Shown: positions 4,086 through 40,638 of the stretch, one piece after another
How positions within the stretch are numbered: position 1 is the stretch's first letter
How the letters are laid out: the number at the start of each line of letters is the position of its first letter
NCBI GenBank assembly: GCA_001823695.1
Contig: MHVD01000002.1
Span: forward strand, 15,215 to 79,214
Length of the DNA: 64,000 nt
Source: Candidatus Zambryskibacteria bacterium RIFCSPHIGHO2_01_FULL_43_25
GTDB taxonomy: Bacteria > Patescibacteriota > Minisyncoccia > Phycocordibacterales > Zambryskibacteraceae
Reading direction: 5' to 3'
Position numbers and translations under genes: made by a program
Notes under the pieces: generated by a model
Seen by the model: only the letters and a program-made list of their open reading frames with translations
What the model was told of the DNA's origin: nothing
The model's database searches: none

Positions 4086-5183
4086 ATGGATGCCGGTAAT
4101 TTACTTGTATTGTCTATCATTGTTGTTTTGGTTCCTTATTTCCGGCGGATGTTTTTTTATAACCAGGAATCGCATAAGGAGCCAAGGCCCACAGGTGACA
4201 GGTTGCCTGTATTTGATTTCCTAAGGGGCGTTGCGATAATGGCCGTGGTAATTATCCACGTCGCCTGGGTTTATATTTTGAGCAATCCCGACAGAAGCGA
4301 CATCTTCTTGTTTTTTGTAAACAATGTCTCCCGTTTTGCCATATCAATATTCTTTATTGTTTCTGGCGCACTGCTTCAAATCGGCGATCTGTCTCTTAAG
4401 AGTTTGGCAAAATTTTACAGGACGAAACTAATAAGAGTATTTTTGCCCTATATTTTGGTCGTATCTTTCCTATCTTTCTATTTCCAGGATTCTTTCAGCG
4501 AGTTTGCTTACAATTTACTGACGGGAAACTCCTTACCGCCGTTTTATTTTATTATTATACTTTTGCAGTTCTATATTATATTTCCGTTTCTTTCAAAGTT
4601 TCGCACCAACAAATATCTTTTGCCGATAAGTTTTGTCATTTCTTGGGTCTCTTTTCTAGTGCCCGCTCTTCTTAGTCTCGGCGGGGTTCCGTTTTTCGGG
4701 CAATATTTGTTCTTTTTTGCATACGGTCTTACTCACCGAAACCAGCTTATTGCCGAATCAGCCAAAAAAGGAATTGATAAGAAGAAAATTAAATTGTGTT
4801 CAGTCCTTGTATTGCTGTACTTGTTGATTTGTCTTCTTGACCCAGGATATTATTACAACACCCAGCTGATCTATGGAACTGCCGTTTTCGTGATTCTCTT
4901 TGAGATATACAAAAAATATTATTCCGGACTTATCGCAAAACTTTTTGTATTATTCGGAAGTTTGAGCTTGTGGATCTTTTTGCTCCATTTCCCGATTACG
5001 GAAATGTTTACAATAAAAATTCCAGCTCTAGTCGGTGAATTTTATCCAGCTTTTTACATATCGGCAATATTGTCATTAGTTTTCAGTCTAGCCGTTGCCT
5101 TTGTTGCGAGCCGTCTTTTCTCTTTTATAAAAAAATACCTGATGTCTTATACTTTAGATTATAATAAGTCTATCAATGAATAA
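4086..5183 (+). CDS. Acyltransferase 3 (OafA/YrhL-like) family membrane protein
   Basis: About 10 TM segments. N-terminal RLPVFDFLRGVAIMAVVIIHV matches the acyl_transf_3 start. Confidence 0.6.
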   Translation: MDAGNLLVLSIIVVLVPYFRRMFFYNQESHKEPRPTGDRLPVFDFLRGVAIMAVVIIHVAWVYILSNPDRSDIFLFFVNNVSRFAISIFFIVSGALLQIGDLSLKSLAKFYRTKLIRVFLPYILVVSFLSFYFQDSFSEFAYNLLTGNSLPPFYFIIILLQFYIIFPFLSKFRTNKYLLPISFVISWVSFLVPALLSLGGVPFFGQYLFFFAYGLTHRNQLIAESAKKGIDKKKIKLCSVLVLLYLLICLLDPGYYYNTQLIYGTAVFVILFEIYKKYYSGLIAKLFVLFGSLSLWIFLLHFPITEMFTIKIPALVGEFYPAFYISAILSLVFSLAVAFVASRLFSFIKKYLMSYTLDYNKSINE

Positions 5184-23160: not shown

Positions 23161-25539
23161 ATGCTTATCAGTTATAAATGGCTAGAGAGGTACTTTGATG
23201 AAAAACTGCCGGAAGCGGAAAAAATTTCCAGTGCGCTCACAATGCATTCCTTTGAGGTTGAATCTTTTGAAGCTGTTGAAGGAGATACGGTTTTCAACAT
23301 CAAAATTTTACCTGACCGTGCCCATGACTGTCTGTCGCACAGAGGTATTGCCAGAGAGATATCGGTAATTCTCGGTACGAGGCTTAACAAGGAAGAGTAT
23401 GAACTCAAGCCGCTGTCAGGTATCCCAGAATCCAAGAAAGTCACAATTAATTACATTGACCAAAAAATCTGTCCGCGTTTCTCAGCGCTTGTCATTGAAA
23501 ATATAAAAATAAAAGAAAGCCCAGGATGGCTTCGTGAAATCCTCAAATCCATAGGCCAGAAATCAATAAACAACGTAGTTGATATAACCAATTACGTGAT
23601 GTTTTCAATGGGACAACCGCTTCATGCATATGACTTAAGTCGCCTTAATCAAAAAGATGGGGTGATTGATTTCGGGGTAAGAATGAGTCAAAAAGGAGAA
23701 AAACTTATAACCTTGGACGGCAAGGAGTATGAAATGCCTGGAGGGTTGCTAGTTATAGAAAACGAAGGCGCTGTGGGTATTGCTGGAATAAAGGGTGGCA
23801 ATTCAAGCAGAATAGATGAAAATACAAAATCAATTGTGATTGAGGCGGCAAATTTTAATCCAGTAGCGGTCAGAAAATCATCTAAAGCTATAGGTTTGAG
23901 GACTGATGCCTCAATCAGGTTTGAAAATGATATATCTCCAAAACTTACACTCCGCGCTCTTGAAATGGCCAGGGGGCTTGTTTTAGAGCTCGCAAGCACA
24001 AAAGATACGATTATTGAAGGATTTGCCGATTTTTACCCCATTAGGAGGTCGGACTACAAGGTTGGAGTATCTCTGGAAGAAATTAAAAAAATTACCGGTA
24101 TTGATTTTGATGATAAAGAAATTAAAAAAATTTTAGATCGAGCACTGCTGAAATATGAGGTAATCAATCCTCGTGATGTTATTGTGTCTCTTGCGAAAGA
24201 AAATCTAGGCAAACCATATAAATACGGCGCAAGCGTGACTGCTGATGCACCAAACGCTTTTGACTGTTCCTCGTTTATTTCTTGGCTTTATGCCCAGGCT
24301 GGTATTTCTATACCAAGAATTTCCATAGACCAATATATTTACGGAGCAGAAATTTCCAGAGAAAAAACCAAGCCTGGGGATTTAGTTTTTTGTAATACGC
24401 ACAGAGACAACAGGGGTGTTTTTCATCGTAAGTCCATAGAGTTTTTACCTGGAACTGAGGTTACTAAACCAGTTGATCATGACGGTATTTACCTTGGTAA
24501 TGGCGAAGTTGCACATTCTACTGAAATTAAAGGAAAGATAATTGTTGAACTTTTAGATGAAAGTGATTCTTTTAAGGATATAGTTGGGTTCAGAAGGGTT
24601 AAAGAAATTGATAAAGATAGATATGTTATTTCCGTTCCTTTCGAAAGACTTGACTTGAGGCAACCCGCAGATCTTATAGAAGAAATTGCAAGAATCTATG
24701 GGTACGAAAATATAAAGCCAAAAAAACTGGAAGAAACTTCAGCAGAAGTTTTTACTGATAAAAATTCATATTATGCAGATTTGATGAAAGACATTTTAAT
24801 TGGCGAAGGTTTCTCGGAAATCATAAGTTATTCTTTTAAAAATAATGGCAAAATTGAACTCCTTAACCCGATTGCTTCTGATAAGGGCTTTCTCAGGGCG
24901 GATTTAAAAAACTCTATGCACGACCTGCTTGAATTTAATTTCAGTAATGCTGAACTCCTTGGCTTGACGGAAGTTAAAGTATTTGAAGTTGGCACCATTT
25001 TTAACAGCAAAGCGGAACACCTATCCTTGGCTGTGGCTGTAAAGAATAATGAAAAACAAAAGGTGGTTGATGAAGCAGTACGAGCGGTTATATCAAAAAT
25101 TAGTGATGATTTGAAGATTGACTTAATGAAATTTGGCGTTATTGAAGGCGGTATATACGAAGGCGATTTTGAAAAAGCAATAAAGAATTTGCCTGAGCCG
25201 AAAGAAGTAATTAAATTTGAATCAAGACCAAATCTCAAATTTAAAACCCCGTCAGTATACCCCTTTGTCTTGAGAGATGTGGCGGTTTTTGTGCCAAACG
25301 GAATTTCGGCGGATGAAGTTTTTGCTATTATAAAAAAAGAAGGCGGCAATTTACTTACACGTGTCAGACTTTTTGATGTATTTGAAAAAACAACAGAAGA
25401 TGGTGAAAAGAAAATCTCGTACGCTTTTAGACTTGTCTTTCAGTCCCAAAGCAGGACTTTAACAGATGAAGAAATGAACACAATAATGGAGAGAATTAAT
25501 AAGGCAGTCAATGCCAAGTTAAACTGGCAAGTGAGGTAA
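23161..25539 (+). CDS. pheT: Phenylalanine--tRNA ligase beta subunit carrying an inserted NlpC/P60 domain. The N-terminal OB tRNA-binding domain is absent.
   Basis: B3/B4 region (VDITNYVMFSMGQPLHAYD), B5 region split by a ~148-aa insert, EEIARIYGYENI motif, and C-terminal FDX-ACB-like domain. Confidence 0.85.
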   Translation: MLISYKWLERYFDEKLPEAEKISSALTMHSFEVESFEAVEGDTVFNIKILPDRAHDCLSHRGIAREISVILGTRLNKEEYELKPLSGIPESKKVTINYIDQKICPRFSALVIENIKIKESPGWLREILKSIGQKSINNVVDITNYVMFSMGQPLHAYDLSRLNQKDGVIDFGVRMSQKGEKLITLDGKEYEMPGGLLVIENEGAVGIAGIKGGNSSRIDENTKSIVIEAANFNPVAVRKSSKAIGLRTDASIRFENDISPKLTLRALEMARGLVLELASTKDTIIEGFADFYPIRRSDYKVGVSLEEIKKITGIDFDDKEIKKILDRALLKYEVINPRDVIVSLAKENLGKPYKYGASVTADAPNAFDCSSFISWLYAQAGISIPRISIDQYIYGAEISREKTKPGDLVFCNTHRDNRGVFHRKSIEFLPGTEVTKPVDHDGIYLGNGEVAHSTEIKGKIIVELLDESDSFKDIVGFRRVKEIDKDRYVISVPFERLDLRQPADLIEEIARIYGYENIKPKKLEETSAEVFTDKNSYYADLMKDILIGEGFSEIISYSFKNNGKIELLNPIASDKGFLRADLKNSMHDLLEFNFSNAELLGLTEVKVFEVGTIFNSKAEHLSLAVAVKNNEKQKVVDEAVRAVISKISDDLKIDLMKFGVIEGGIYEGDFEKAIKNLPEPKEVIKFESRPNLKFKTPSVYPFVLRDVAVFVPNGISADEVFAIIKKEGGNLLTRVRLFDVFEKTTEDGEKKISYAFRLVFQSQSRTLTDEEMNTIMERINKAVNAKLNWQVR
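24166..24609 (+). other. NlpC/P60 (papain-like Cys/His) domain inserted in-frame within the PheT B5 domain
   Basis: AFDCSSFISWLYAQAG (catalytic Cys), KPGDLVFC and HDGIYLGNGEVAHST (catalytic His) are all three canonical NlpC/P60 motifs. They lie between PheT blocks ...LLKYEV and DKDRYVISVPFERLDL.... Confidence 0.7.
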
Positions 25540-25542
25540 TAT

Positions 25543-26109
25543 ATGATTTTAGACGTACCATATTATTCACAATATAACGACGTGGAGTCGATTAATTGGC
25601 AGGATAAGGCGTGCACTATGACCTGCCTCAAAATGGCGCTGGATTTTAAAACCAAAACCGATATGCCGTCTATTAACGAGCTTATTACCGAAGGCCACGC
25701 TATTGGCGGTTACGGAGAGTACGGGTGGACGCACCAGGCGATAGTTCTCCTGTCACATAACTATGGGATACCCGCCTATCAGGAAGAGTTTCGTTCGGTA
25801 TTTGTTGATGTACAGGAAAAGACTTTCGTTCCGAGTAAATTTGAATCAGAGATATTGAATGAAGGCATCGTTCGTCTGAAGAAAGGAATAGACGAAATGC
25901 GCCTGCCGATAGTCTCTGTTAGAAGAAATTGGGAGCAAAATGGTACTTTCCATTCAATTATTATTATTGGTTATGAGCTGAAAGACCGCGAAATATCCGG
26001 TTTTTACTACCACGATCCGGATACAAAAAATGAAGAAAAAAGGAAACAATTTATTCCACTTGATAAATTTACTTCCAACTGGAGAAAAATGGCTATATTT
26101 ATAGGTTAA
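25543..26109 (+). CDS. Peptidase_C39-like (C39_2) papain-fold protein, no signal peptide
   Basis: N-terminal LDVPYYSQ...ACTMTCLKMAL matches the C39-like start. His/Asp candidates in FHSIIIIGYE / YYHDPD. Starts 4 nt after the pheT stop. Confidence 0.5.
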   Translation: MILDVPYYSQYNDVESINWQDKACTMTCLKMALDFKTKTDMPSINELITEGHAIGGYGEYGWTHQAIVLLSHNYGIPAYQEEFRSVFVDVQEKTFVPSKFESEILNEGIVRLKKGIDEMRLPIVSVRRNWEQNGTFHSIIIIGYELKDREISGFYYHDPDTKNEEKRKQFIPLDKFTSNWRKMAIFIG

Positions 26110-31444: not shown

Positions 31445-34400
31445 TTAAAAAATTCTTATTTTCTCAGCGATTATTGAAATAGAATTGTTTCTCTTTGAAA
31501 CAGAGCCGACGACTACCACGCAATTTTCGGGTTTTATTACCTCTTTAAATTCATTTAGAACTCTGGGAAAAACCACTACTTCCATAGAATCTGATAAATC
31601 AGCTATACGAACAAACATCATTTTCTCATTTCCTTTCGTAATTACTTCGCGCGCATCTTCAATAATTCCGGCTACTGTTGCTCGAAGGCCTTCGGGGAAC
31701 TCCTTTTTTATTCTGGCGATATTTACACTCCGTTCTTCAAGTTTACTCTTGTACTGGTTGAGCGGATGGCCTGAAATATAAAGTCCCAAGAGTTCCTTTT
31801 CCCATACCAGTTTGTCTTTTTCTGTCGCTGGTTTTGATTTGGATAGGGTCAACCTTGAAGTTTGTGAATTTTCAGACATCAAGCCAAACAAAGAATCTTG
31901 AGCTTTTACACCTTGGGCGCTTTCTTTGTGAAAAGTAAGCAAAGTTTCGAGATTTTGGAGCATCTGTCCTCTTTCGCCAAACTCTTCCAGCGCTCCCGCT
32001 TTGATAAGCGATTCAAGAGATTTTTTGTTCAAGTTTCTGTCTCCCACCCTCTCCAAGAAATCGGCAAGAGATGTGTATTTTCCGCCTTCTTTTCTTTCTC
32101 TAACAATTGATTGCGAAATTCCCTCGCCGAAGTTCTTTATCGTAGCAAGCCCGAATCTGATTTTGTCGGGGCTTCCAGCTCCTCTGACTACCGAAAACCC
32201 GCGGAAACTTTCATTGGCGCTTGGCGGCATAACAGGAATATTCATTCTTTTGCACTCTGATATTATCTCACCGACTTTTTCTACATCTCCGGAGTCGGCA
32301 GTGAGTACGGCTGACATATAGATAGCAGGGTAATTCGCTTTAAAATAAGCGGTTTGATAAGCAACCCGCCCATAACTTGCGGCGTGTGCTTTGTTGAATC
32401 CATAAGCGGCAAATGGTTCTATCCAAGTCCAGAGCTCCACAGCTTTTTTGTGTGGCCAATTGCTGTGGGAGATACAACCGTCTATAAATTTTTCCTTTTG
32501 TGCCACCATTTCTTTAGGAATTTTCTTGCCGACCGCCTTTCTGAATTTGTCCACCTCTCCCCAGGTATATCCGGCTATGTCTTTGGCAATAAGAAGAAGG
32601 TCGTCTTGATAAACAAGGACCCCGTATGTTCTCTCAAGTATTGGTGCAAGTGCCATATCAAGATATTTTATTAAAGATGGGTTGTGCTTCCTCTTTATAA
32701 ATTCTGGAATAAACTGCATTGGTCCCGGGCGATAAAGAGCAACCATCGCATTTATATCATGGATCGTTGAAGGTTTGAGTTCCATCAGGAATTTCGTCAT
32801 TGCTTCACCGTTGAGCTGGAACAATCCTTCTGTTTCTCCGCGGGCAAGTATGCTGAATGTTTTCGGATCATCAAGCGGGATATTTTCTGGGTCAATGAGT
32901 TTTTCTTCGATTGCCCTTATGCGGTCTACGGTATCAGCAAGTATTGATAGATTTTTTAGTCCCAGAAAGTCAAATTTAAGCAAGCCAGCATCTTCTACGC
33001 TGTACATATCGTATTGAGTAATGATTTTCCTTTCACCTTTTGGGTCGTACTGGAGCGGAACATAATCGGTAATATCAGTCGGCGAGATAATCACGCCAGC
33101 TGCGTGGACGGAAATGTGCCTGGCGCACCCCTCAATTTTCCTCGCCATGTCTATTACTTCTCTGACGTCGTCCTCCTTTTGGTATATATCTTTAAGCTCG
33201 GGGATCATCTCAAAAGCCCTATCAATTGTCATAGGGAAGCCTTGGGAACCAAAGGGCATAAGTCTGGCGATACGGTCGCCCGTGCTGTAAGGATAACCCA
33301 GCGCTCTAGCAACGTCTCTCACTGCTCCCCGGGCCATCATAGTTCCAAATGTTCCGATCTGGGCAACCTTATCTGCGCCATATTTTTGCCTGGCGTATTC
33401 AATCATTTCGTCACGCCTGTTGTCAGCGAAATCCATATCAATATCTGGGGGTGACGGTCTTTCCGGGTTGAGAAATCGTTCAAACGGCAAACCGTATTCT
33501 ATAGGATTTACATTTGTAATCCCGGCAAGATAAGTGACCATTGACCCGGCAACTGACCCCCTAATGTTTGTGAGGATTCCATTTTCATGCGCATACCTTA
33601 GCAAGTCACCGACAACCAGGAAATATGGAGCATAGCCCTTATCGTTTATGATTTTCAATTCATATTCTATTCTTTCTTCAACTTCTTTGGTTTTTTTCAG
33701 ACCTCTTTTGTCTAGGCCTTCACAAACCAATCGCCTTAATTCTTTGTCCGGGGAAAGACCACTTTCAACTTTGAAATCAGGGAAAACCCAGGAACCGAAT
33801 TTCAACTCGAGATTACAGCTCCCAACTATCTCGTCGACTGACGATAGGGCTTCGGGAATATTTTTAAAAGCTTCAGTCATCTGTTCTCTGTCTCTGAATG
33901 AAAAGTCCTTCTCTTCTTCGTCAAACTCATGTCGCCCCCTGTCGGAATTTGTTTGCACCGACATCAAAGTCTGCCAAGCTTTCTTATCTTCGGGATTTAT
34001 ATAAAAAATATCTTGAGCAGCGACAACCTTTATGTTTTCTTTTTTTGCAAATTCCAAAAGTTCTTTCATAAGTTCAGCATGACCGGGAATTTCTGGGTGG
34101 TAAGTTAATTCAATGAAGAAATTTTTTCTACCAAAAATATTTTTGTACCGGTCAGCAATATCAGTCGCTTTTTTTCTATCCTTGTTGCGCAGAGCTTTGG
34201 CGATTTCTCCGGAGTTGGAAGGTGATATGGCCGTTAGTCCTTCGGAGTATTTCTCCAGTAGCTCTTTATCAATTCTCGGCTTGTAATAAAATCCTTCCAA
34301 GTGCGATAAGCTGGTGAGTTTTATTAGGTTTTTATAACCTGTCTCGTCCCGCGCCAACAATATCAATCTGAATCTTGTATTGTCTACACCGGCCTGCTTG

Positions 34401-34630
34401 TCGTGTCTTGTTCGCAACGCAACATAAGCATCCACTCCTATTATCGGTTTGATGTCGTTCTTTTTGCACTCCTGGAAAAATTCAATCGCTCCGTATAGAT
34501 TCCCGTTGTCAGTCAAAGCCAGCGCTTTCATGCCAAATTTTTTTGCCGCAGAAACCAATTCCGGTATTTTAGGCAAAGCGCCCAAGAGACTATAGTGGCT
34601 ATGGGTATGGAGATGAGAGAAGGAAGACAT
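31445..34630 (-). CDS. dnaE: DNA polymerase III alpha subunit
   Basis: PHP domain HLHTHSHYSLLGA, polymerase core and OB domain. Start taken at the internal ATG (MSSFSHLH...). Confidence 0.9.
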   Translation of the reverse strand: MSSFSHLHTHSHYSLLGALPKIPELVSAAKKFGMKALALTDNGNLYGAIEFFQECKKNDIKPIIGVDAYVALRTRHDKQAGVDNTRFRLILLARDETGYKNLIKLTSLSHLEGFYYKPRIDKELLEKYSEGLTAISPSNSGEIAKALRNKDRKKATDIADRYKNIFGRKNFFIELTYHPEIPGHAELMKELLEFAKKENIKVVAAQDIFYINPEDKKAWQTLMSVQTNSDRGRHEFDEEEKDFSFRDREQMTEAFKNIPEALSSVDEIVGSCNLELKFGSWVFPDFKVESGLSPDKELRRLVCEGLDKRGLKKTKEVEERIEYELKIINDKGYAPYFLVVGDLLRYAHENGILTNIRGSVAGSMVTYLAGITNVNPIEYGLPFERFLNPERPSPPDIDMDFADNRRDEMIEYARQKYGADKVAQIGTFGTMMARGAVRDVARALGYPYSTGDRIARLMPFGSQGFPMTIDRAFEMIPELKDIYQKEDDVREVIDMARKIEGCARHISVHAAGVIISPTDITDYVPLQYDPKGERKIITQYDMYSVEDAGLLKFDFLGLKNLSILADTVDRIRAIEEKLIDPENIPLDDPKTFSILARGETEGLFQLNGEAMTKFLMELKPSTIHDINAMVALYRPGPMQFIPEFIKRKHNPSLIKYLDMALAPILERTYGVLVYQDDLLLIAKDIAGYTWGEVDKFRKAVGKKIPKEMVAQKEKFIDGCISHSNWPHKKAVELWTWIEPFAAYGFNKAHAASYGRVAYQTAYFKANYPAIYMSAVLTADSGDVEKVGEIISECKRMNIPVMPPSANESFRGFSVVRGAGSPDKIRFGLATIKNFGEGISQSIVRERKEGGKYTSLADFLERVGDRNLNKKSLESLIKAGALEEFGERGQMLQNLETLLTFHKESAQGVKAQDSLFGLMSENSQTSRLTLSKSKPATEKDKLVWEKELLGLYISGHPLNQYKSKLEERSVNIARIKKEFPEGLRATVAGIIEDAREVITKGNEKMMFVRIADLSDSMEVVVFPRVLNEFKEVIKPENCVVVVGSVSKRNNSISIIAEKIRIF

Positions 34631-34723
34631 GCCCAGATATAATATCAGGTAAAGCGGCGGAAACAGCGCTTCTTCGTGGAAATCTAATTGACAGAGAGAG
34701 CTTATGGCATCTATCATGTATGT

Positions 34724-35266
34724 ATGTCAAACTCTCTGCCAAAAAAAGAAGAAAAAAACAGGGGTTTCAGCCTAGTTGAATTGCTTGTGGTTGTTGGAAT
34801 AATCGCGATTTTGATTTCTGTGGTAATAGTCGGGTCGCAAACTGTCCGTTCGCGAGGCAGGGACGCGCAGGTTAGGTCGGACGTTTCAACGATCATTTTG
34901 GCGTTTGAGAGATTCAGGAATAACAGTGCCGATAGTCCTAACTATAGATATCCTGGAGTTTATAACCAAGTCCAATGTTTGAAAGCAAGCGGTACATGCT
35001 GGGGTGGAGCATATAACGGCAATTCAACAATTAGCGCCAATCTGGCGAACTATCTCTCTACTATACCTACACCTCCCGGCACCAAGTCTGGTGAGTTGAG
35101 GCATGATGCCTACCTGTTTTACTCAGGCAGTTCCGATCCGTTCGGTTTGGGAATCGGCAATGGTAGTTGGCTGGTGTGGCCCCAGGAGAAACCTATTCCT
35201 GACTGTAAGGGTTTAGCAAGACAAGAAAGCGATGGAATATACTACTGCTATCAGCTACTTCGTTAG
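34724..35266 (+). CDS. Type IV pilin / pseudopilin (class III signal peptide)
   Basis: KNRG|FSLVELLVVVGIIAIL prepilin cleavage/methylation motif. Confidence 0.7.
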   Translation: MSNSLPKKEEKNRGFSLVELLVVVGIIAILISVVIVGSQTVRSRGRDAQVRSDVSTIILAFERFRNNSADSPNYRYPGVYNQVQCLKASGTCWGGAYNGNSTISANLANYLSTIPTPPGTKSGELRHDAYLFYSGSSDPFGLGIGNGSWLVWPQEKPIPDCKGLARQESDGIYYCYQLLR

Positions 35267-35893: not shown

Positions 35894-35982
35894 CCTACCC
35901 GCCATAAGCCTAGTACCATACTTAGCAAAAATAGAAATGGTAGCAGTTTATCCGAATGAAGTAATGCTTTTGACAGCAGGCG

Positions 35983-36018
35983 ATTGACAGGCGAGTTGAC
36001 ATTTGTATATTTTGATAT
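35983..36018 (+). promoter_or_regulatory. Promoter region with three tandem TTGACA hexamers; the last is paired with TACTAT at 17 nt
   Basis: ttgacagcaggcgattgacaggcgagttgacatttgtatattttgatattactat. Confidence 0.35.
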
Positions 36019-36068
36019 TACTATACTAACAGATTGCACCTCCGGAGAAACATTTGCAAGGAGTCAGC

Positions 36069-36341
36069 ATGGACCTATCAAATGATGAGAAAGGCCGGCG
36101 GTTTGGCTTCTTTTACTTTGGTGGTTATCCAGTGAGAGAGGAAGAGAGAATCGCTGGTTTTGGCTGGGAAGGGGAACCCGGTGCCGTAGTTCCAAAGCGC
36201 TTTGACGATGAGGCATTCAATGAGCTGCTGGGTGATCCCATAGTTCCGAAGTCTCAGCCACAGAAGAGAATCAGCCAACCACCATCTCCGGCCGAAACAA
36301 AGCCCGCTGGGTTTTGGGAAGGGGACGAGCCTATCCGCTAG
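36069..36341 (+). CDS. Hypothetical small protein (moderately GC-rich) with its own terminator
   Basis: ATG with AAGGAG 7 nt upstream. The ORF track starts at the TTG 36054. Confidence 0.35.
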   Translation: MDLSNDEKGRRFGFFYFGGYPVREEERIAGFGWEGEPGAVVPKRFDDEAFNELLGDPIVPKSQPQKRISQPPSPAETKPAGFWEGDEPIR

Positions 36342-36362
36342 CCCGGATCTTCGGATGTATGT

Positions 36363-36400
36363 GCCCCAGCGCGCTTTCGCGCGCTGGGGCATTGCTTTTT
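36363..36400 (+). terminator. Intrinsic terminator
   Basis: gccccagcgcgc-tttc-gcgcgctggggc followed by attgcttttt. Confidence 0.7.
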
Positions 36401-36428
36401 ACCTGATTTTATATACAATGTGCCTATT

Positions 36429-36692
36429 ATGGTTGTAAGAATGCGTCATACCAGGTCCCATACGAGGAATCGCCGCGCTCATCATGCCTTGAAAGAGCGG
36501 GCTTTATCGGCTTGCAGTCATTGTGGCGCTGTTAAGAAAAACCACTTAGTCTGCATGAATTGCGGCTACTACAGGGAGAGGGAAATTATTGACGTTATAT
36601 CAAGCACGTCAAAAAAAGAAGCAAAGAAAAAGAATAAAAAGGCGGAGGCCGGAGCGGAAGCAAAGGCGGAAGCCAAAGAAGAATCCAAATAG
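36429..36692 (+). CDS. rpmF: 50S ribosomal protein L32 with Lys/Ala/Glu-rich tail
   Basis: MVVRMRHTRSHTRNRRAHHAL...CSHCG...HLVCMNCGYY zinc ribbon. The alternative GTG start at 36420 is the one listed by the ORF track. Confidence 0.8.
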   Translation: MVVRMRHTRSHTRNRRAHHALKERALSACSHCGAVKKNHLVCMNCGYYREREIIDVISSTSKKEAKKKNKKAEAGAEAKAEAKEESK

Positions 36693-36717: not shown

Positions 36718-37632
36718 ATGGCAAATCGGCACCTCGCAAGATCAGTAGTAATGCAGTCCCTGTTTGAATGGGATTTTAGAGGGTTTGATAAAAAGACGGC
36801 CCTAAAAGTCCTTGAAAGGAATGTTGAAGAATTTGCCGCGGGTGAAAACGACATCGATTTCATAGAAAATCTGTACAAAACAGTCTTGGAAAAGCGCAAA
36901 GAACTAGACCTCATCATTACCAAAGCCGCACCAGACTGGCCTGTAGAAAAAATATCAATTATTGACCGGAATGTCCTGCGCATCGGGCTTTCCGAGCTTT
37001 TATTTGCTGATAGGAAAGAAGTTCCGCCGAAAGTCGCCATAAATGAAGCGATTGAATTGGCAAAAAATTTTGGCGGCGAAACAAGCGGCAAGTTCGTAAA
37101 CGGAGTTTTAGGCGCCGTGTACAAAGAAATGGGAGAGCCGGGCAAAGATGAAGTTTCAACTAAAAAGAAAAATCCTGATAATATCCCTGATGAAAAAGCC
37201 CCCCTTCTTATTTTAGGTGGAGCTGTGGTATATTCTGAAAAAGAAGGCAGAATTTACATAGCTTTGGTTCATGACGTATTTGGCCATTGGACCTTGTCTA
37301 AGGGTAAACTCGAAGATAATGAAGATATAAAAGCTGGTACTATTCGTGAGATAAAAGAAGAATTAGGACTCGATATTGAGATAGAACAAGAATTAGGCGT
37401 AAACGAATACATTGCCTATCACCCTGAACACGGAAAACTACGCAAGAGGGTGTATTACTTTTTAGCAAGGTCGCAGTACGCAGAAATGATTTTGGAGAAA
37501 GAAGGCGGTCTTGATAATGCCAAATGGTTTTCCTTGGACCAGATCGCCGAACTCAACTTTTATGACGATGTTTTGCCGCTTGTAACCAAGGCAGTCATGA
37601 TACTTGCCAGAGCGCAGCAGAATAAAAAATAA
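36718..37632 (+). CDS. nusB: NusB (N-terminal) - NUDIX hydrolase (C-terminal) fusion protein
   Basis: Residues 1-140 carry KVAINEAIELAKNFGGETSGKFVNGVL, the NusB signature. Residues ~170-300 carry a perfect Nudix box GKLEDNEDIKAGTIREIKEELGL. One continuous ORF. Confidence 0.75.
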   Translation: MANRHLARSVVMQSLFEWDFRGFDKKTALKVLERNVEEFAAGENDIDFIENLYKTVLEKRKELDLIITKAAPDWPVEKISIIDRNVLRIGLSELLFADRKEVPPKVAINEAIELAKNFGGETSGKFVNGVLGAVYKEMGEPGKDEVSTKKKNPDNIPDEKAPLLILGGAVVYSEKEGRIYIALVHDVFGHWTLSKGKLEDNEDIKAGTIREIKEELGLDIEIEQELGVNEYIAYHPEHGKLRKRVYYFLARSQYAEMILEKEGGLDNAKWFSLDQIAELNFYDDVLPLVTKAVMILARAQQNKK

Positions 37633-37633
37633 A

Positions 37634-38323
37634 ATGGACTTTTCTTTGTTTGAAAACAAAATAGGCATAAATTTCAAAGATAAAAACCTGCTTAAACAGG
37701 CATTTGTCCACCGTTCGTATCTAAATGAAAACCGCGATTTTCCCCTAGGACACAACGAAAGGCTAGAGTTTCTGGGCGACGCGGTCTTGGAGCTTGTGGT
37801 AACGGAGGATCTGTACAGCCGTTTTCCCGAAAAGAATGAGGGAGAGATGACCAGTCTTCGCTCGGCCCTTGTCAACGCGAACACTCTCCATCTGGTCGCC
37901 AACAATCTCGGGGTCAATGGCTTTTTACTTCTTTCTCGCGGGGAGTCCAAAGACACCGGCCGGGCCAGACAATATATTCTGGCAAACACCATTGAATCCA
38001 TAATTGGCTCTATCTATATGGACCAAGGATACGAAGCGGCCAAGAAATTCGTCCACGACCACATCACCCCATTGATTGAGGCGATAATTTCGGAAGGCAG
38101 TTTTATGGACGCCAAGAGCACGTTCCAGGAAAAATCTCAAGACGAATACGGCATAACTCCCGTCTATAAGACGATTAAAGAATCAGGCCCGGATCATGAC
38201 AAGAAGTTTACCATTGGCGTTTTCATAGGCGATCAGCCCATTGCTTCGGGAGAAGGCGACTCAAAACAAGACGCCGAACAAGAAGCAGCCAGAAAAGCTT
38301 TGAAAAAAAAGAACTGGATGTAG
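37634..38323 (+). CDS. rnc: Ribonuclease III
   Basis: ERLEFLGDAVLELVV signature and C-terminal dsRBD. ATG immediately after the nusB-nudix stop. Confidence 0.9.
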   Translation: MDFSLFENKIGINFKDKNLLKQAFVHRSYLNENRDFPLGHNERLEFLGDAVLELVVTEDLYSRFPEKNEGEMTSLRSALVNANTLHLVANNLGVNGFLLLSRGESKDTGRARQYILANTIESIIGSIYMDQGYEAAKKFVHDHITPLIEAIISEGSFMDAKSTFQEKSQDEYGITPVYKTIKESGPDHDKKFTIGVFIGDQPIASGEGDSKQDAEQEAARKALKKKNWM

Positions 38324-38385: not shown

Positions 38386-40638
38386 ATGTTGTTAAAATCT
38401 GTAGAATTATCCGGTTTTAAATCATTCGCTAAAAAAAGCGCATTCCAATTTACTTCCGCCATCTCAGCGATAGTAGGTCCTAACGGTTCCGGCAAAAGCA
38501 ATGTAGCCGAAGCTTTTCGTTTCGTTTTGGGAGAGCAATCAATAAAGTCACTGCGCGGCAAGCGCGGAGAAGATTTAATTTGGAACGGAGGCAAAGATGC
38601 GCCAAGATCAAATAGGGCAGATGTGAAAGTCATCTTTGATAACAGCAGGCGATTCCTGAATATTGATTTTGATGAAGTGTCAATTGAACGTGTCGTGAAC
38701 AGGGACTCAAGCAATGAGTATTTTATCAATGGCAGCCAAGTTCGGCTCAAAGATATAGTAGAACTTTTAGCTCATGCCCATATCGGTTCCTCCGGACACC
38801 ACATTATTTCTCAAGGCGAGGCAGACAGAATCTTGGGCAGTTCAATGAAGGAGCGCAGGGAAATGATTGAAGATGCGCTAGGTCTAAAGATATATCAATA
38901 CAAAAGACAGGAGAGTGAGCGCAAGCTTGAGAAAACCTTAAGCAATCTTGTCCAAGTTGAATCCTTAAGAAGAGAAGTGGCTCCCCACTTACGTTTTCTT
39001 AAAAAACAGGTGGAAAAGCTGGAAAGAATTGAACAGTTGAAAGAGAATCTCAAAGTCAAGGCGTTAGAATATCTAAAACGGGAGGAAATTTATCTTTCAA
39101 ACGAGGAGAAGAGCATTGAGGGAGCAAGAAAACCCCTTGAAGACGAGTTCAAAACTTGCGGAGAGGAGCTCAATTCGGCTAAGGAAGCTCTTGAGAAATC
39201 ATCAGGCAAGGATAAAAAAAGCGATGAGCTTATCTCTCTTGAGAAAAAAATCAAAGAAGCGAGGGAAAAATCTGAAGGAATAATACAAAAGGTAGGGAAA
39301 CTTGAAGGCCGTATTGTTGCGGAAGAGGAGATTTTAAATAAACAGAAGGAGATCGCCCTCTCTAGCGAACATAAGACAGTGCCTTTGGTTGAGGTTGAAA
39401 ATCTGGTTAAGGAAGCGGAAGGAAGCATTGAAGAAGCTGAAAAAGCGGGAGGCCTTGAAACTTTCAAAGCAGTGCTCTTCTCGCTTCGGCAGATGCTTCG
39501 TTCCTTTATTGAAAACAAAAAAGGCCAGACTGACAGCAGGATTATACAGGATACAGAACGAAAGATTCAGGAGTTTAAACATCTAAAAGACGAAGCCGAT
39601 AATAATCTGGCGGGTATAAAAAAGATCGAAGAGGAGCTGTACCGTCAGTACGAAAGTCTAAGAAAGGAGATTGAAACGGCCAAAGATTCAAGCCGAGATG
39701 CGGAAAAGAAAATGTTTGAAATAATGTCGCGGCAGAAAGAGATAAGTGCGGAACTCAATGTTTTGAGAGAAAGAGCCAGGCGTCTGACGTCGGAGAGTGA
39801 GGAGTTTAAGCGCGAAATTGCCGAAATTGCCGCTCTGGCCGGCAGAGAAATACTTGAGTACAAATCTTTCAGCGTTGATTCTTCTGATGAAAATAGAGAG
39901 AAACAGGAAGAGAGAAAAAGAGAAATAGAAAAATTTAAAATCCGCCTTGAGGATTCTGGACTTTTGGGCGGCGAAGACGTAATGAAGGAATTTAAGGAAA
40001 CCAGCGAAAGAGACTCTTTCTTGGAAAAAGAGATAAATGACTTGAGGGATTCGGCCGAATCCCTCAAGAAACTAATTGTTGACTTAGGCGAACAGCTTGA
40101 CCGCGAGTTTAAGGAGGGAATTGAGAAGATAAATAAGGAATTTCAGAACCTGTTTGCTCTAATGTTTAACGGTGGCTCGGCTTCCCTTAAGCTTATCAAA
40201 GCGCAAAAAAGGATAAAAAAGGAAACCGATGATCTGGAGCTTCCGACTGATAATGTGGAATCGGAGGAGAAAGAAGAGTTTGAAGAGGGAATTGACATTG
40301 ACGTGGTGCTTCCTAGAAAGAAAATAAAAGGGCTGATGATGCTCTCCGGCGGCGAGAGGGCGCTTACCTCCATAGCGCTTCTCTTCGCGATGTCTCAAGT
40401 CAACCCGCCGCCTTTTATTATTCTTGATGAAACGGATGCGGCGCTTGATGAAGCCAACTCCAAAAAATACGGCGATATGATAGAGGATCTCTCAAAATCT
40501 TCCCAGCTTATTCTCATAACCCACAACAGGGAAACAATGTCGCGCGCCGGCGTTATCTACGGAGTAACAATGGATTCAGGCGGCGTATCAAAAACTCTTT
40601 CAATCCAATTTGACGAGGCCACAGCAGTCGCAAAATAA
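38386..40638 (+). CDS. smc: SMC-family chromosome segregation ATPase, short (750 aa) form
   Basis: Walker A GPNGSGKSN, coiled-coil middle, LSGGERALTSIAL signature, Walker B ILDETDAALD. Canonical rnc-smc neighbourhood. Confidence 0.75.
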   Translation: MLLKSVELSGFKSFAKKSAFQFTSAISAIVGPNGSGKSNVAEAFRFVLGEQSIKSLRGKRGEDLIWNGGKDAPRSNRADVKVIFDNSRRFLNIDFDEVSIERVVNRDSSNEYFINGSQVRLKDIVELLAHAHIGSSGHHIISQGEADRILGSSMKERREMIEDALGLKIYQYKRQESERKLEKTLSNLVQVESLRREVAPHLRFLKKQVEKLERIEQLKENLKVKALEYLKREEIYLSNEEKSIEGARKPLEDEFKTCGEELNSAKEALEKSSGKDKKSDELISLEKKIKEAREKSEGIIQKVGKLEGRIVAEEEILNKQKEIALSSEHKTVPLVEVENLVKEAEGSIEEAEKAGGLETFKAVLFSLRQMLRSFIENKKGQTDSRIIQDTERKIQEFKHLKDEADNNLAGIKKIEEELYRQYESLRKEIETAKDSSRDAEKKMFEIMSRQKEISAELNVLRERARRLTSESEEFKREIAEIAALAGREILEYKSFSVDSSDENREKQEERKREIEKFKIRLEDSGLLGGEDVMKEFKETSERDSFLEKEINDLRDSAESLKKLIVDLGEQLDREFKEGIEKINKEFQNLFALMFNGGSASLKLIKAQKRIKKETDDLELPTDNVESEEKEEFEEGIDIDVVLPRKKIKGLMMLSGGERALTSIALLFAMSQVNPPPFIILDETDAALDEANSKKYGDMIEDLSKSSQLILITHNRETMSRAGVIYGVTMDSGGVSKTLSIQFDEATAVAK

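Follow-up and report, generated by a model that had tools for sequence, protein, structure and literature searches.

A Nudix domain fused to the antitermination factor NusB in a wide range of Parcubacteria

The stretch of DNA analysed here, a 64-kb window taken from the genome of a Candidatus Zambryskibacteria bacterium (Parcubacteria group of Patescibacteria), is a typical housekeeping region that carries dnaE, gyrB, rpoB, rpoC, dnaG and rpoD. Within this window, one gene on the + strand, referred to as nusB::nudix hereafter, encodes a single protein of 304 amino acids (aa) in which the transcription antitermination factor NusB continues through a linker into a Nudix domain. The fusion is ancient, is under selection and sits at the same locus over a wide range of Parcubacteria, which fits vertical inheritance, and the ligand pocket of its Nudix domain is better conserved across the family than the catalytic residues are. 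Both domains belong to well-known families; joined together, they form a variant that runs through the clade.

NusB, a factor universal among bacteria, nucleates on BoxA the complex that serves rRNA antitermination and rRNA folding; in partnership with S10, it attaches to BoxA in the leaders of nascent rRNA and remains with the polymerase during elongation. I know of no accessory enzymatic domain that has been described on NusB, and a full-text literature search found no paper describing a NusB-Nudix fusion. The first-pass annotation of this DNA had called the architecture undescribed, which held for the literature but less so for the public databases, where these proteins are common and hundreds of them are labelled only 'transcription antitermination factor NusB'. 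Such labels make the Nudix half invisible to functional surveys, and this concerns a large uncultivated clade in which NusB has a covalent link to a domain, and the nearest relative of that domain to have been studied removes protection from RNA 5' ends. The hypothesis put forward below is that the two halves are functionally coupled.

The fusion gene and its NusB half

The open reading frame (ORF) runs from an ATG at 36718 to a TAA at 37630-37632. The single continuous ORF with NusB, linker and NUDIX domain that had been read in the first pass was confirmed, with both Pfam domains above their cutoffs. The gene is divided as follows:

36718..37632, + strand: nusB::nudix fusion gene, 304 aa plus stop codon; uninterrupted ORF with both Pfam domains and a conserved N-terminus
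36718..37131, + strand: NusB domain, all-helical, aa 1-138 (PF01029, TIGR01951, PDB, Foldseek and AlphaFold2 (AF2))
37132..37212, + strand: linker, a GEPGK hinge followed by a Lys-rich disordered stretch, aa 139-165 (predicted local distance difference test (pLDDT) and homologue alignment)
37213..37629, + strand: Nudix domain, assigned to the asymmetric Ap(n)A-hydrolase type, aa 166-304 (PF00293, PDB profile matches and Foldseek)
37303..37371, + strand: Nudix box G196-L218 (GKLEDNEDIKAGTIREIKEELGL), aa 196-218 (from the sequence directly)

The N-terminal residues MANRHLARS belong to the Arg-rich N-terminus of NusB and are kept in homologues, and the start at 36718 is for this reason the correct one, while the GenBank/UniRef model (OHA89325.1, UniRef100_A0A1G2U3Z3; 293 aa) begins at Met12 and is 11 residues too short.

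The NusB domain was matched by PF01029 over aa 7-136 (E=1.5e-32, 113 bits against a Pfam cutoff of 23.1) and by the NCBIfam model TIGR01951 for nusB over model positions 2-130/131, with 125.4 bits against an equivalog cutoff of 88.35. The NusB peptide KVAINEAIELAKNFGG...KFVNGVL is located at aa 105-131. The domain could be aligned over its full length with NusB crystal structures from Thermotoga, Aquifex, Escherichia coli and Mycobacterium (7e-20 to 3e-12), and the AF2 model placed seven helices at aa 4-138, with pLDDT mostly above 85. Foldseek returned the NusB structures 3R2C, 3R2D and 4EYA at a template-modelling (TM) score of 0.89 and a root-mean-square deviation (rmsd) of 1.7-1.8 A; 3R2C is Aquifex NusB in the NusB-NusE-BoxA complex, on which the model superposes with a TM score of 0.89 and an rmsd of 1.8 A. 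Residues Y18, E75 and E81 of E. coli NusB, which I take to be contacts of NusE (S10), align to F16, E77 and D83 of the fusion; these are conservative substitutions, and neither F16 nor D83 varies among close homologues.

Standalone NusB proteins of 144-147 aa occur in two sister lineages (L083 and L086), are 55-58% identical to the NusB half and occupy the same slot between the genes for L32 and RNase III. No other NusB or Nudix gene was found within the 64-kb window. Because TIGR01951 scored above its equivalog cutoff and because the gene lies in the same L32-[nusB]-rnc slot as standalone nusB, the NusB half is, judging by sequence and position, the NusB orthologue of this genome, i.e. its rRNA/BoxA antitermination factor, and not a paralogue. 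It shares with the characterised NusB proteins of E. coli, Aquifex and Thermotoga (3D3B, 3R2C and 1TZT) the full-length domain, the fold, acidic residues at the putative NusE-contact positions and the genomic slot; it differs from them in the Phe at the position of E. coli Y18 and in a C-terminal extension of ~165 aa (hinge, linker and Nudix domain) that none of the characterised NusB proteins has.

Spread of the fusion and its linker

A survey of NusB relatives for further fusions, suggested in the first pass, showed that the architecture is widespread. The exact 304-aa protein was present on 15 contigs (sources JGI, Logan, ENA and SRC), and each of the 120 best matches among 5.8 billion proteins was ~300 aa long and contained both Pfam domains. 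An exhaustive search of 50%-identity cluster representatives gave ~55 full-length fusion representatives, down to 32% identity. With one genome taken per GTDB species, at least 598 species genomes matched two NusB-domain motifs; the fusion state was read in the best 80 of these, the other 518 being known from their NusB-motif match. All of the best 80 loci were uninterrupted full-length fusions (58-67% identity), from bins named Zambryski-, Taylor-, Kaiser-, Adler-, Nomura-, Lloyd- and Pacebacteria and Parcubacteria/Paceibacterota.

A sequencing or assembly artefact that merges two genes had been kept in view from the start. It is ruled out because the identical ORF lies on 15 independently assembled contigs and because the close matches (120/120) and the GTDB loci (80/80) are all fused. 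Nothing was found in its favour beyond rare split variants elsewhere, and the chance that it accounts for this gene is vanishingly small.

These split variants are separate nusB and nudix calls in two other assemblies (L001 at 2400-2560 and L002 at 4960-5010). Both are 1-nucleotide (nt) frameshifts, at runs of six and nine A, respectively, within the Lys-rich linker, and restoring one base rejoins the frame; on the L001 contig, the SMC and CysS genes are fragmented as well. The splits are probably assembly errors and not ancestral separate genes, and the idea that relatives carry truly separate nusB and nudix genes was rejected, as both cases examined are homopolymer frameshifts. Programmed slippage on poly-A, which would yield a NusB-only isoform, was likewise considered and rejected: across the 80 loci there is no consistent slippery site, and the longest A-run in the linker ranges from 2 to 9, is mostly 5-6, and is 5 in the window gene.

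The linker is ~27 aa long and rich in Lys. In an AF2 model built from a 48-sequence alignment (mean pLDDT 86.8), aa 141-152 were disordered with pLDDT below 50, and the Nudix half formed an alpha/beta domain from about aa 163 to the C-terminus with pLDDT ~90. The predicted TM score (pTM) of 0.50 came with no defined inter-domain geometry and no intramolecular docking surface. Given the low linker pLDDT and this pTM, the model indicates two intact, confidently folded domains that would behave as beads on a flexible tether, with no fixed arrangement. In close fusion homologues, the linker always starts with the motif GEPGK, whereas none of 20 standalone NusB proteins has this motif in its C-terminal tail, which marks it as a fusion-specific feature.

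The fusion also persists in a lineage with an altered genetic code. A divergent protein of 33% identity (P0381; L089 4001-4900, GCA_054047225.1, JBPLFY010000016.1) has a degenerate Nudix box, GEQVEKN, and two in-frame TGA codons. Because these coincide exactly with the family-invariant positions W191 and W270, its organism must read UGA as Trp.

Fusions may arise without functional consequence, and one explanation is that, in a streamlined genome, the stop separating nusB from a Nudix gene in front of rnc disappeared, leaving two halves that work independently. Tight gene packing, with a 1-nt gap to rnc, and the existence of split nusB / nudix versions fit with such neutrality. However, both split cases are single-base frameshifts at poly-A runs, one of them on an otherwise fragmented contig, the fusion-specific GEPGK hinge is conserved, and the fusion persists both to 32% identity and in the UGA-recoded lineage. 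Neutrality is consequently regarded as quite improbable, and even a neutral fusion would be a useful clade marker.

The fusion would have been acquired in an ancestor of many Parcubacteria, when the NusB orthologue gained a C-terminal Nudix domain of the type of Aquifex aq_158 via a flexible linker. Searching databases with the Nudix part alone returned only fragments or split versions of the fusion family itself and revealed no free-standing donor family.

The Nudix half: family, catalytic box and ligand pocket

The Nudix half was matched by PF00293 over aa 169-279 (E=7.5e-14, 52.3 bits against a Pfam cutoff of 21.1). The canonical Nudix box noted in the first pass was found to be an exact fit: aa 196-218 agree with GX5EX7REUXEEXGU at every defined position (G196-x5-E202-x7-R210-E211-I-K-E214-E215-L-G217-L). 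E202, R210, E211, E214 and E215 are all present in the window gene, and the catalytic box of this organism is complete.

In single-sequence searches, the closest solved proteins were Thermus Ndx1 (an Ap6A hydrolase), mycobacterial MutT1/Rv2985, the Caenorhabditis elegans Ap4A hydrolase, Dcp2 and Chlamydia CT771. A PDB search with a profile made from 24 diverse family members ranked the Aquifex aq_158 Ap4A hydrolase first (E 3.7e-20), followed by Chlamydia CT771 (E 1.4e-14), Thermus Ndx1 (E 3.3e-14), human NUDT2 (E 7e-12) and the C. elegans Ap4A hydrolase (E 9e-11), with the decapping enzyme Dcp2 as the next group at E about 5e-10. Many Nudix structures matched the modelled domain in Foldseek, and the top match was again aq_158 (3i7u; TM 0.88, rmsd 1.9 A). 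The sequence identity to aq_158 is ~22%.

Residues H31, K36, K81, K83 and Y121 of the C. elegans enzyme (1KTG) align to H190, K195, K240, K243 and Y282 of the fusion, of which K195, K243 and Y282 are kept throughout the family. I take these five residues to be substrate contacts, with K36 and K83 presumably on the phosphates and Y121 stacking on the adenine, and the fusion Nudix thus has equivalents of the corresponding positions of asymmetric Ap4A hydrolases. Because its closest relatives by profile and by fold are those enzymes, the Nudix domain is placed with the asymmetric diadenosine polyphosphate (Ap(n)A) hydrolases such as aq_158, Ndx1 and NUDT2, an assignment that is predicted from homology; NUDT2, C. 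elegans 1KTG, Thermus Ndx1, Chlamydia CT771 and Mycobacterium tuberculosis MutT1/Rv2985 fall into the same subfamily on both measures. Unlike the NusB fusion, these hydrolases are stand-alone or fused to other domains, which in MutT1 is a histidine-phosphatase domain.

Two more specific identities were rejected. An RppH-like activity had been one of the options named in the first pass, and membership of the RppH family was not borne out: the model for the E. coli-type enzyme (NF001936) scored 27 bits against a cutoff of 118, and no RppH chain was among the PDB matches at E<=1e-5. RppH (E. coli NudH/YgdP), the standard RNA 5' pyrophosphohydrolase of bacteria, shares the Nudix fold and the fusion may act similarly, converting triphosphorylated or Np4-capped RNA to monophosphorylated RNA, but it is not an orthologue. 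An 8-oxo-(d)GTP phosphatase of the MutT1 type was discarded because NF052459 gave 35.9 bits against a cutoff of 475, with only its Nudix part matched.

The best match by profile and by structure, aq_158, is an Ap4A/Ap5A/Ap6A hydrolase also named 'Omnivore RNA pyrophosphatase' (3I7U/3I7V; PMC13145063). In vitro it converts 5' tri- and diphosphate RNA to monophosphate RNA and removes m7G, NAD, FAD, Np4 and sugar caps (PMC13145063, 2026), and the mutation E51A abolishes its activity (PMC13145063). The profile alignment pairs E51 with E215 of the fusion, which further shares with aq_158 the complete Nudix box and the signature residues W-x-x-x-K-G, K-x-V-x-Y and a C-terminal Tyr. More generally, RNA 5' ends can be substrates of Ap4A-type Nudix enzymes, RppH, NUDT2 and aq_158 among them (PMC7705103, PMC13145063, PMC7044304, PMC8833179). 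Because the best sequence and structure match has RNA pyrophosphohydrolase and decapping activity, RNA 5'-end chemistry is plausible for the fused domain as well, and to this extent the RNA 5'-end processing proposed in the first pass retains support. However, aq_158 is a free-standing enzyme of 134 aa, and an activity of the fused domain is a prediction.

Retention of the catalytic residues was then compared at two depths, namely in the close clade of 121 sequences (the query and 120 homologues at 63-74% identity) and in a diverse alignment of 54 sequences (the window protein and 53 full-length fusion representatives). In the close clade, 82 of the 121 sequences (68%) have the canonical box, and in 24 the first Glu of REUxEE is replaced by Lys. 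All four glutamates together with the Arg and the Gly are kept by 10 of the 54 diverse sequences, and single glutamates were retained to very different degrees (E211 in 13, E214 in 29, E202 in 36 and E215 in 40). An alignment in which the catalytic glutamates are lacking had been named in the first pass as a result that would refute its reading; the glutamates are complete in the window gene, but the canonical box is present in only 10 of 54 and E211 in 13 of 54 across the family.

On a tree of the NusB domain alone, canonical boxes were scattered over many branches with degenerate ones interspersed. The scatter points to an ancestrally active enzyme with many independent losses. The Nudix domain was never lost among the fusions examined and is not evolving disproportionately fast: the ratio of Nudix to NusB pairwise identity is 0.69 in degenerate and 0.74 in canonical lineages. 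Catalysis cannot be what kept the fusion together family-wide because most of the divergent relatives are without a canonical box, and it is probably kept in the window organism, as its intact box suggests.

The pocket was assessed in the 32 representatives that have at most two of the four glutamates (the degenerate set). Here, K195, Y247 and W270 were each retained in 30 of 32, Y282 in 29, W191 in 28, D186 in 27 and K243 in 25, with Arg in a further 4. K195, K243, Y247, W270 and Y282 align with K36, K83, Y87, W109 and Y121 of the C. elegans Ap4A hydrolase. The simplest reading of these alignments is that the family-wide function would be to bind a nucleoside-polyphosphate ligand, with hydrolysis retained in some lineages, including the window organism. 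A comparable state is known from the inactive Nudix binding modules CFIm25/NUDT21 and NrtR: many of the fusion relatives are likewise without box glutamates and have kept the pocket, but the window copy has a complete box and the likeness is limited to the shared fold. CFIm25 acts in RNA processing and binds Ap4A (PMC7705103).

Candidate roles and the genomic neighbourhood

How might a pocket of this kind serve an antitermination factor? NusB with S10 on BoxA, at the RNA exit of RNA polymerase, would keep the Nudix domain where it can reach the 5' end of the nascent transcript. The domain could then bind the 5'-terminal nucleoside-polyphosphate, whether a triphosphate or an Np4-type cap, and in lineages with an intact box, such as the window organism, this moiety may be hydrolysed, leaving a monophosphate that primes the leader to be processed or degraded. 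That the tethered pocket lies near the 5' end of BoxA transcripts, binds the polyphosphate or cap present there and also hydrolyses it in this organism is quite possible and is adopted here tentatively. Because the binding pocket and not catalysis is conserved across the family, the domain probably serves at its core to recognise or anchor a polyphosphate nucleotide at the antitermination complex, and hydrolysis would be ancestral and lost in many lineages. A more specific proposal, in which the NusB-tethered Nudix domain reads and, where intact, removes the 5' group (a triphosphate or a stress-derived Np4A-type cap) of nascent BoxA pre-rRNA within the antitermination complex, is speculative and held to be unlikely.

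Should both halves work on one transcript, 5'-end chemistry or recognition would for the first time be known as a built-in part of a bacterial elongation/antitermination complex, and experiments could draw on variants of the Nudix domain that are active or inactive by nature. The more specific proposal would amount to a bacterial form of co-transcriptional 5'-end surveillance or anchoring, and ribosome synthesis would be connected with alarmone-derived capping in organisms whose regulatory repertoires are minimal.

Several points weigh against a pocket that works on the transcript 5' end. The position of the Nudix domain near an RNA 5' end is something I infer, and the AF2 model offers no inter-domain geometry that would place it there. 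The ~22% identity to aq_158 is a distant relationship to an enzyme whose RNA activity is documented only in vitro, the conserved aromatic residues may in part belong to the fold core rather than contact a ligand, the rnc neighbourhood does not discriminate between the explanations, and the check for a second NusB copy covers the 64-kb window only. Moreover, the substrate specificity of Nudix enzymes is unpredictable from sequence unless a close homologue has been characterised (PMC13145063).

The domain may instead be an enzyme or sensor of free nucleotides, which hydrolyses or binds Ap4A-Ap6A or a related alarmone with no RNA 5' end involved; fusion to NusB would then co-regulate its dosage with the rRNA transcription machinery, or alarmone occupancy would modulate NusB. 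All of the top matches (aq_158, Ndx1, CT771, NUDT2, the C. elegans enzyme and Rv2985) were first characterised as Ap4A/Ap6A hydrolases, and a pocket kept where catalysis is lost is what ligand-sensing Nudix proteins display. On the other hand, a soluble housekeeping hydrolase gains nothing obvious from a NusB tether that is kept in 80 loci and ~55 representatives, the repeated loss of catalysis argues against housekeeping clearance, and the model makes no allosteric path evident through the disordered linker. A free-nucleotide role is considered unlikely, though with an appreciable chance of being correct.

Enzyme folds can also be recruited as protein-protein scaffolds, as is the case for SuhB in the E. 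coli rRNA antitermination complex. By analogy, the Nudix domain could be purely structural and contact RNA polymerase, Nus factors or RNase III, with ligand and catalysis irrelevant. Most of the divergent lineages are without catalytic residues and yet keep a full-length domain under constraint, which such a scaffold would explain. This explanation is at odds with the basic pocket, whose residues K195 and K243 rank with the best-conserved positions, degenerate lineages included, and with the canonical box, which many separate branches and 68% of the close clade retain; conservation of K195/K243 and the recurrence of the box argue for continued selection on ligand chemistry. The AF2 model also shows no surface for intramolecular docking. 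Taken together, a purely structural role appears improbable, and recognition of a polyphosphate 5' end by the tethered pocket is retained as the working proposal.

The genes on either side of nusB::nudix bear on this proposal to the extent that the first-pass annotation had drawn on one of them. They are:

36420..36692, + strand: rpmF (ribosomal protein L32), upstream neighbour (PF01783, TIGR01031)
37634..38323, + strand: rnc (RNase III), downstream neighbour (TIGR02191, 250 bits)

The gap between the end of rpmF and the start of the fusion gene is 25 nt, and the ATG of rnc at 37634 lies 1 base past the fusion stop codon, so that the position directly upstream of RNase III was correctly read. 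From this adjacency, co-transcriptional RNA 5'-end processing coupled to antitermination had been suggested, but it is no evidence of a Nudix-RNase III coupling because rnc also follows standalone nusB in L083 and L086: these sister lineages have the same L32-nusB-rnc order without any Nudix domain. Proximity of rnc reflects an older rRNA-biogenesis gene cluster and is nothing specific to the Nudix half. The order dnaE(-) / rnhB - rpmF - nusB::nudix - rnc - smc was almost invariant across related loci: L32 immediately precedes the fusion in 73 of 76 assessable loci, and rnc follows it in all 82; divergent fusions (33-45% identity) are likewise followed by rnc, and one of them has YceD-L32 upstream. 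The 64-kb window contains no rRNA, and so no rRNA leader or BoxA was found there.

Some features of the surrounding genes were noted in passing. The rnhB-rpmF gap (35894-36419) is 527 nt long and contains a strong promoter-like site at 35984-36011 (TTGACA-16-TATATT) and, just upstream of rpmF, a 14-bp GC-rich hairpin with a T-tract at 36361-36402. Its ORFs had no Pfam match, no Rfam family reached threshold, and no similarity was found in 80+ related loci. A small gene or RNA particular to this lineage, together with a terminator, could lie in the gap; alternatively, the gap could serve rpmF-nusB-rnc as a leader/attenuator.

Downstream of rnc, an SMC-like gene (38386-40638, + strand) encodes only 750 aa; its translation shows a Walker A head at the N-terminus and an LSGGE signature at the C-terminus. 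Bacterial SMC proteins are typically about 1150-1200 aa long, which would imply much shorter coiled-coil arms here if that length holds as the norm.

Upstream, a type IV pilin-like protein with an N-terminal methylation motif (34688-35266, + strand; Pfam E=3e-7) is encoded divergently from dnaE (31445-34717, - strand), and its TTG start overlaps the dnaE start region. Further away, the phenylalanyl-tRNA synthetase beta subunit PheT (23161-25539, + strand; 792 aa) has B3_4, B5 and FDX-ACB domains and, as an unusual insertion at aa 350-414, a peptidase domain of the NlpC/P60 family (Pfam E=1.4e-17); the gene that follows it (25543-26109) is Peptidase_C39_2-like.

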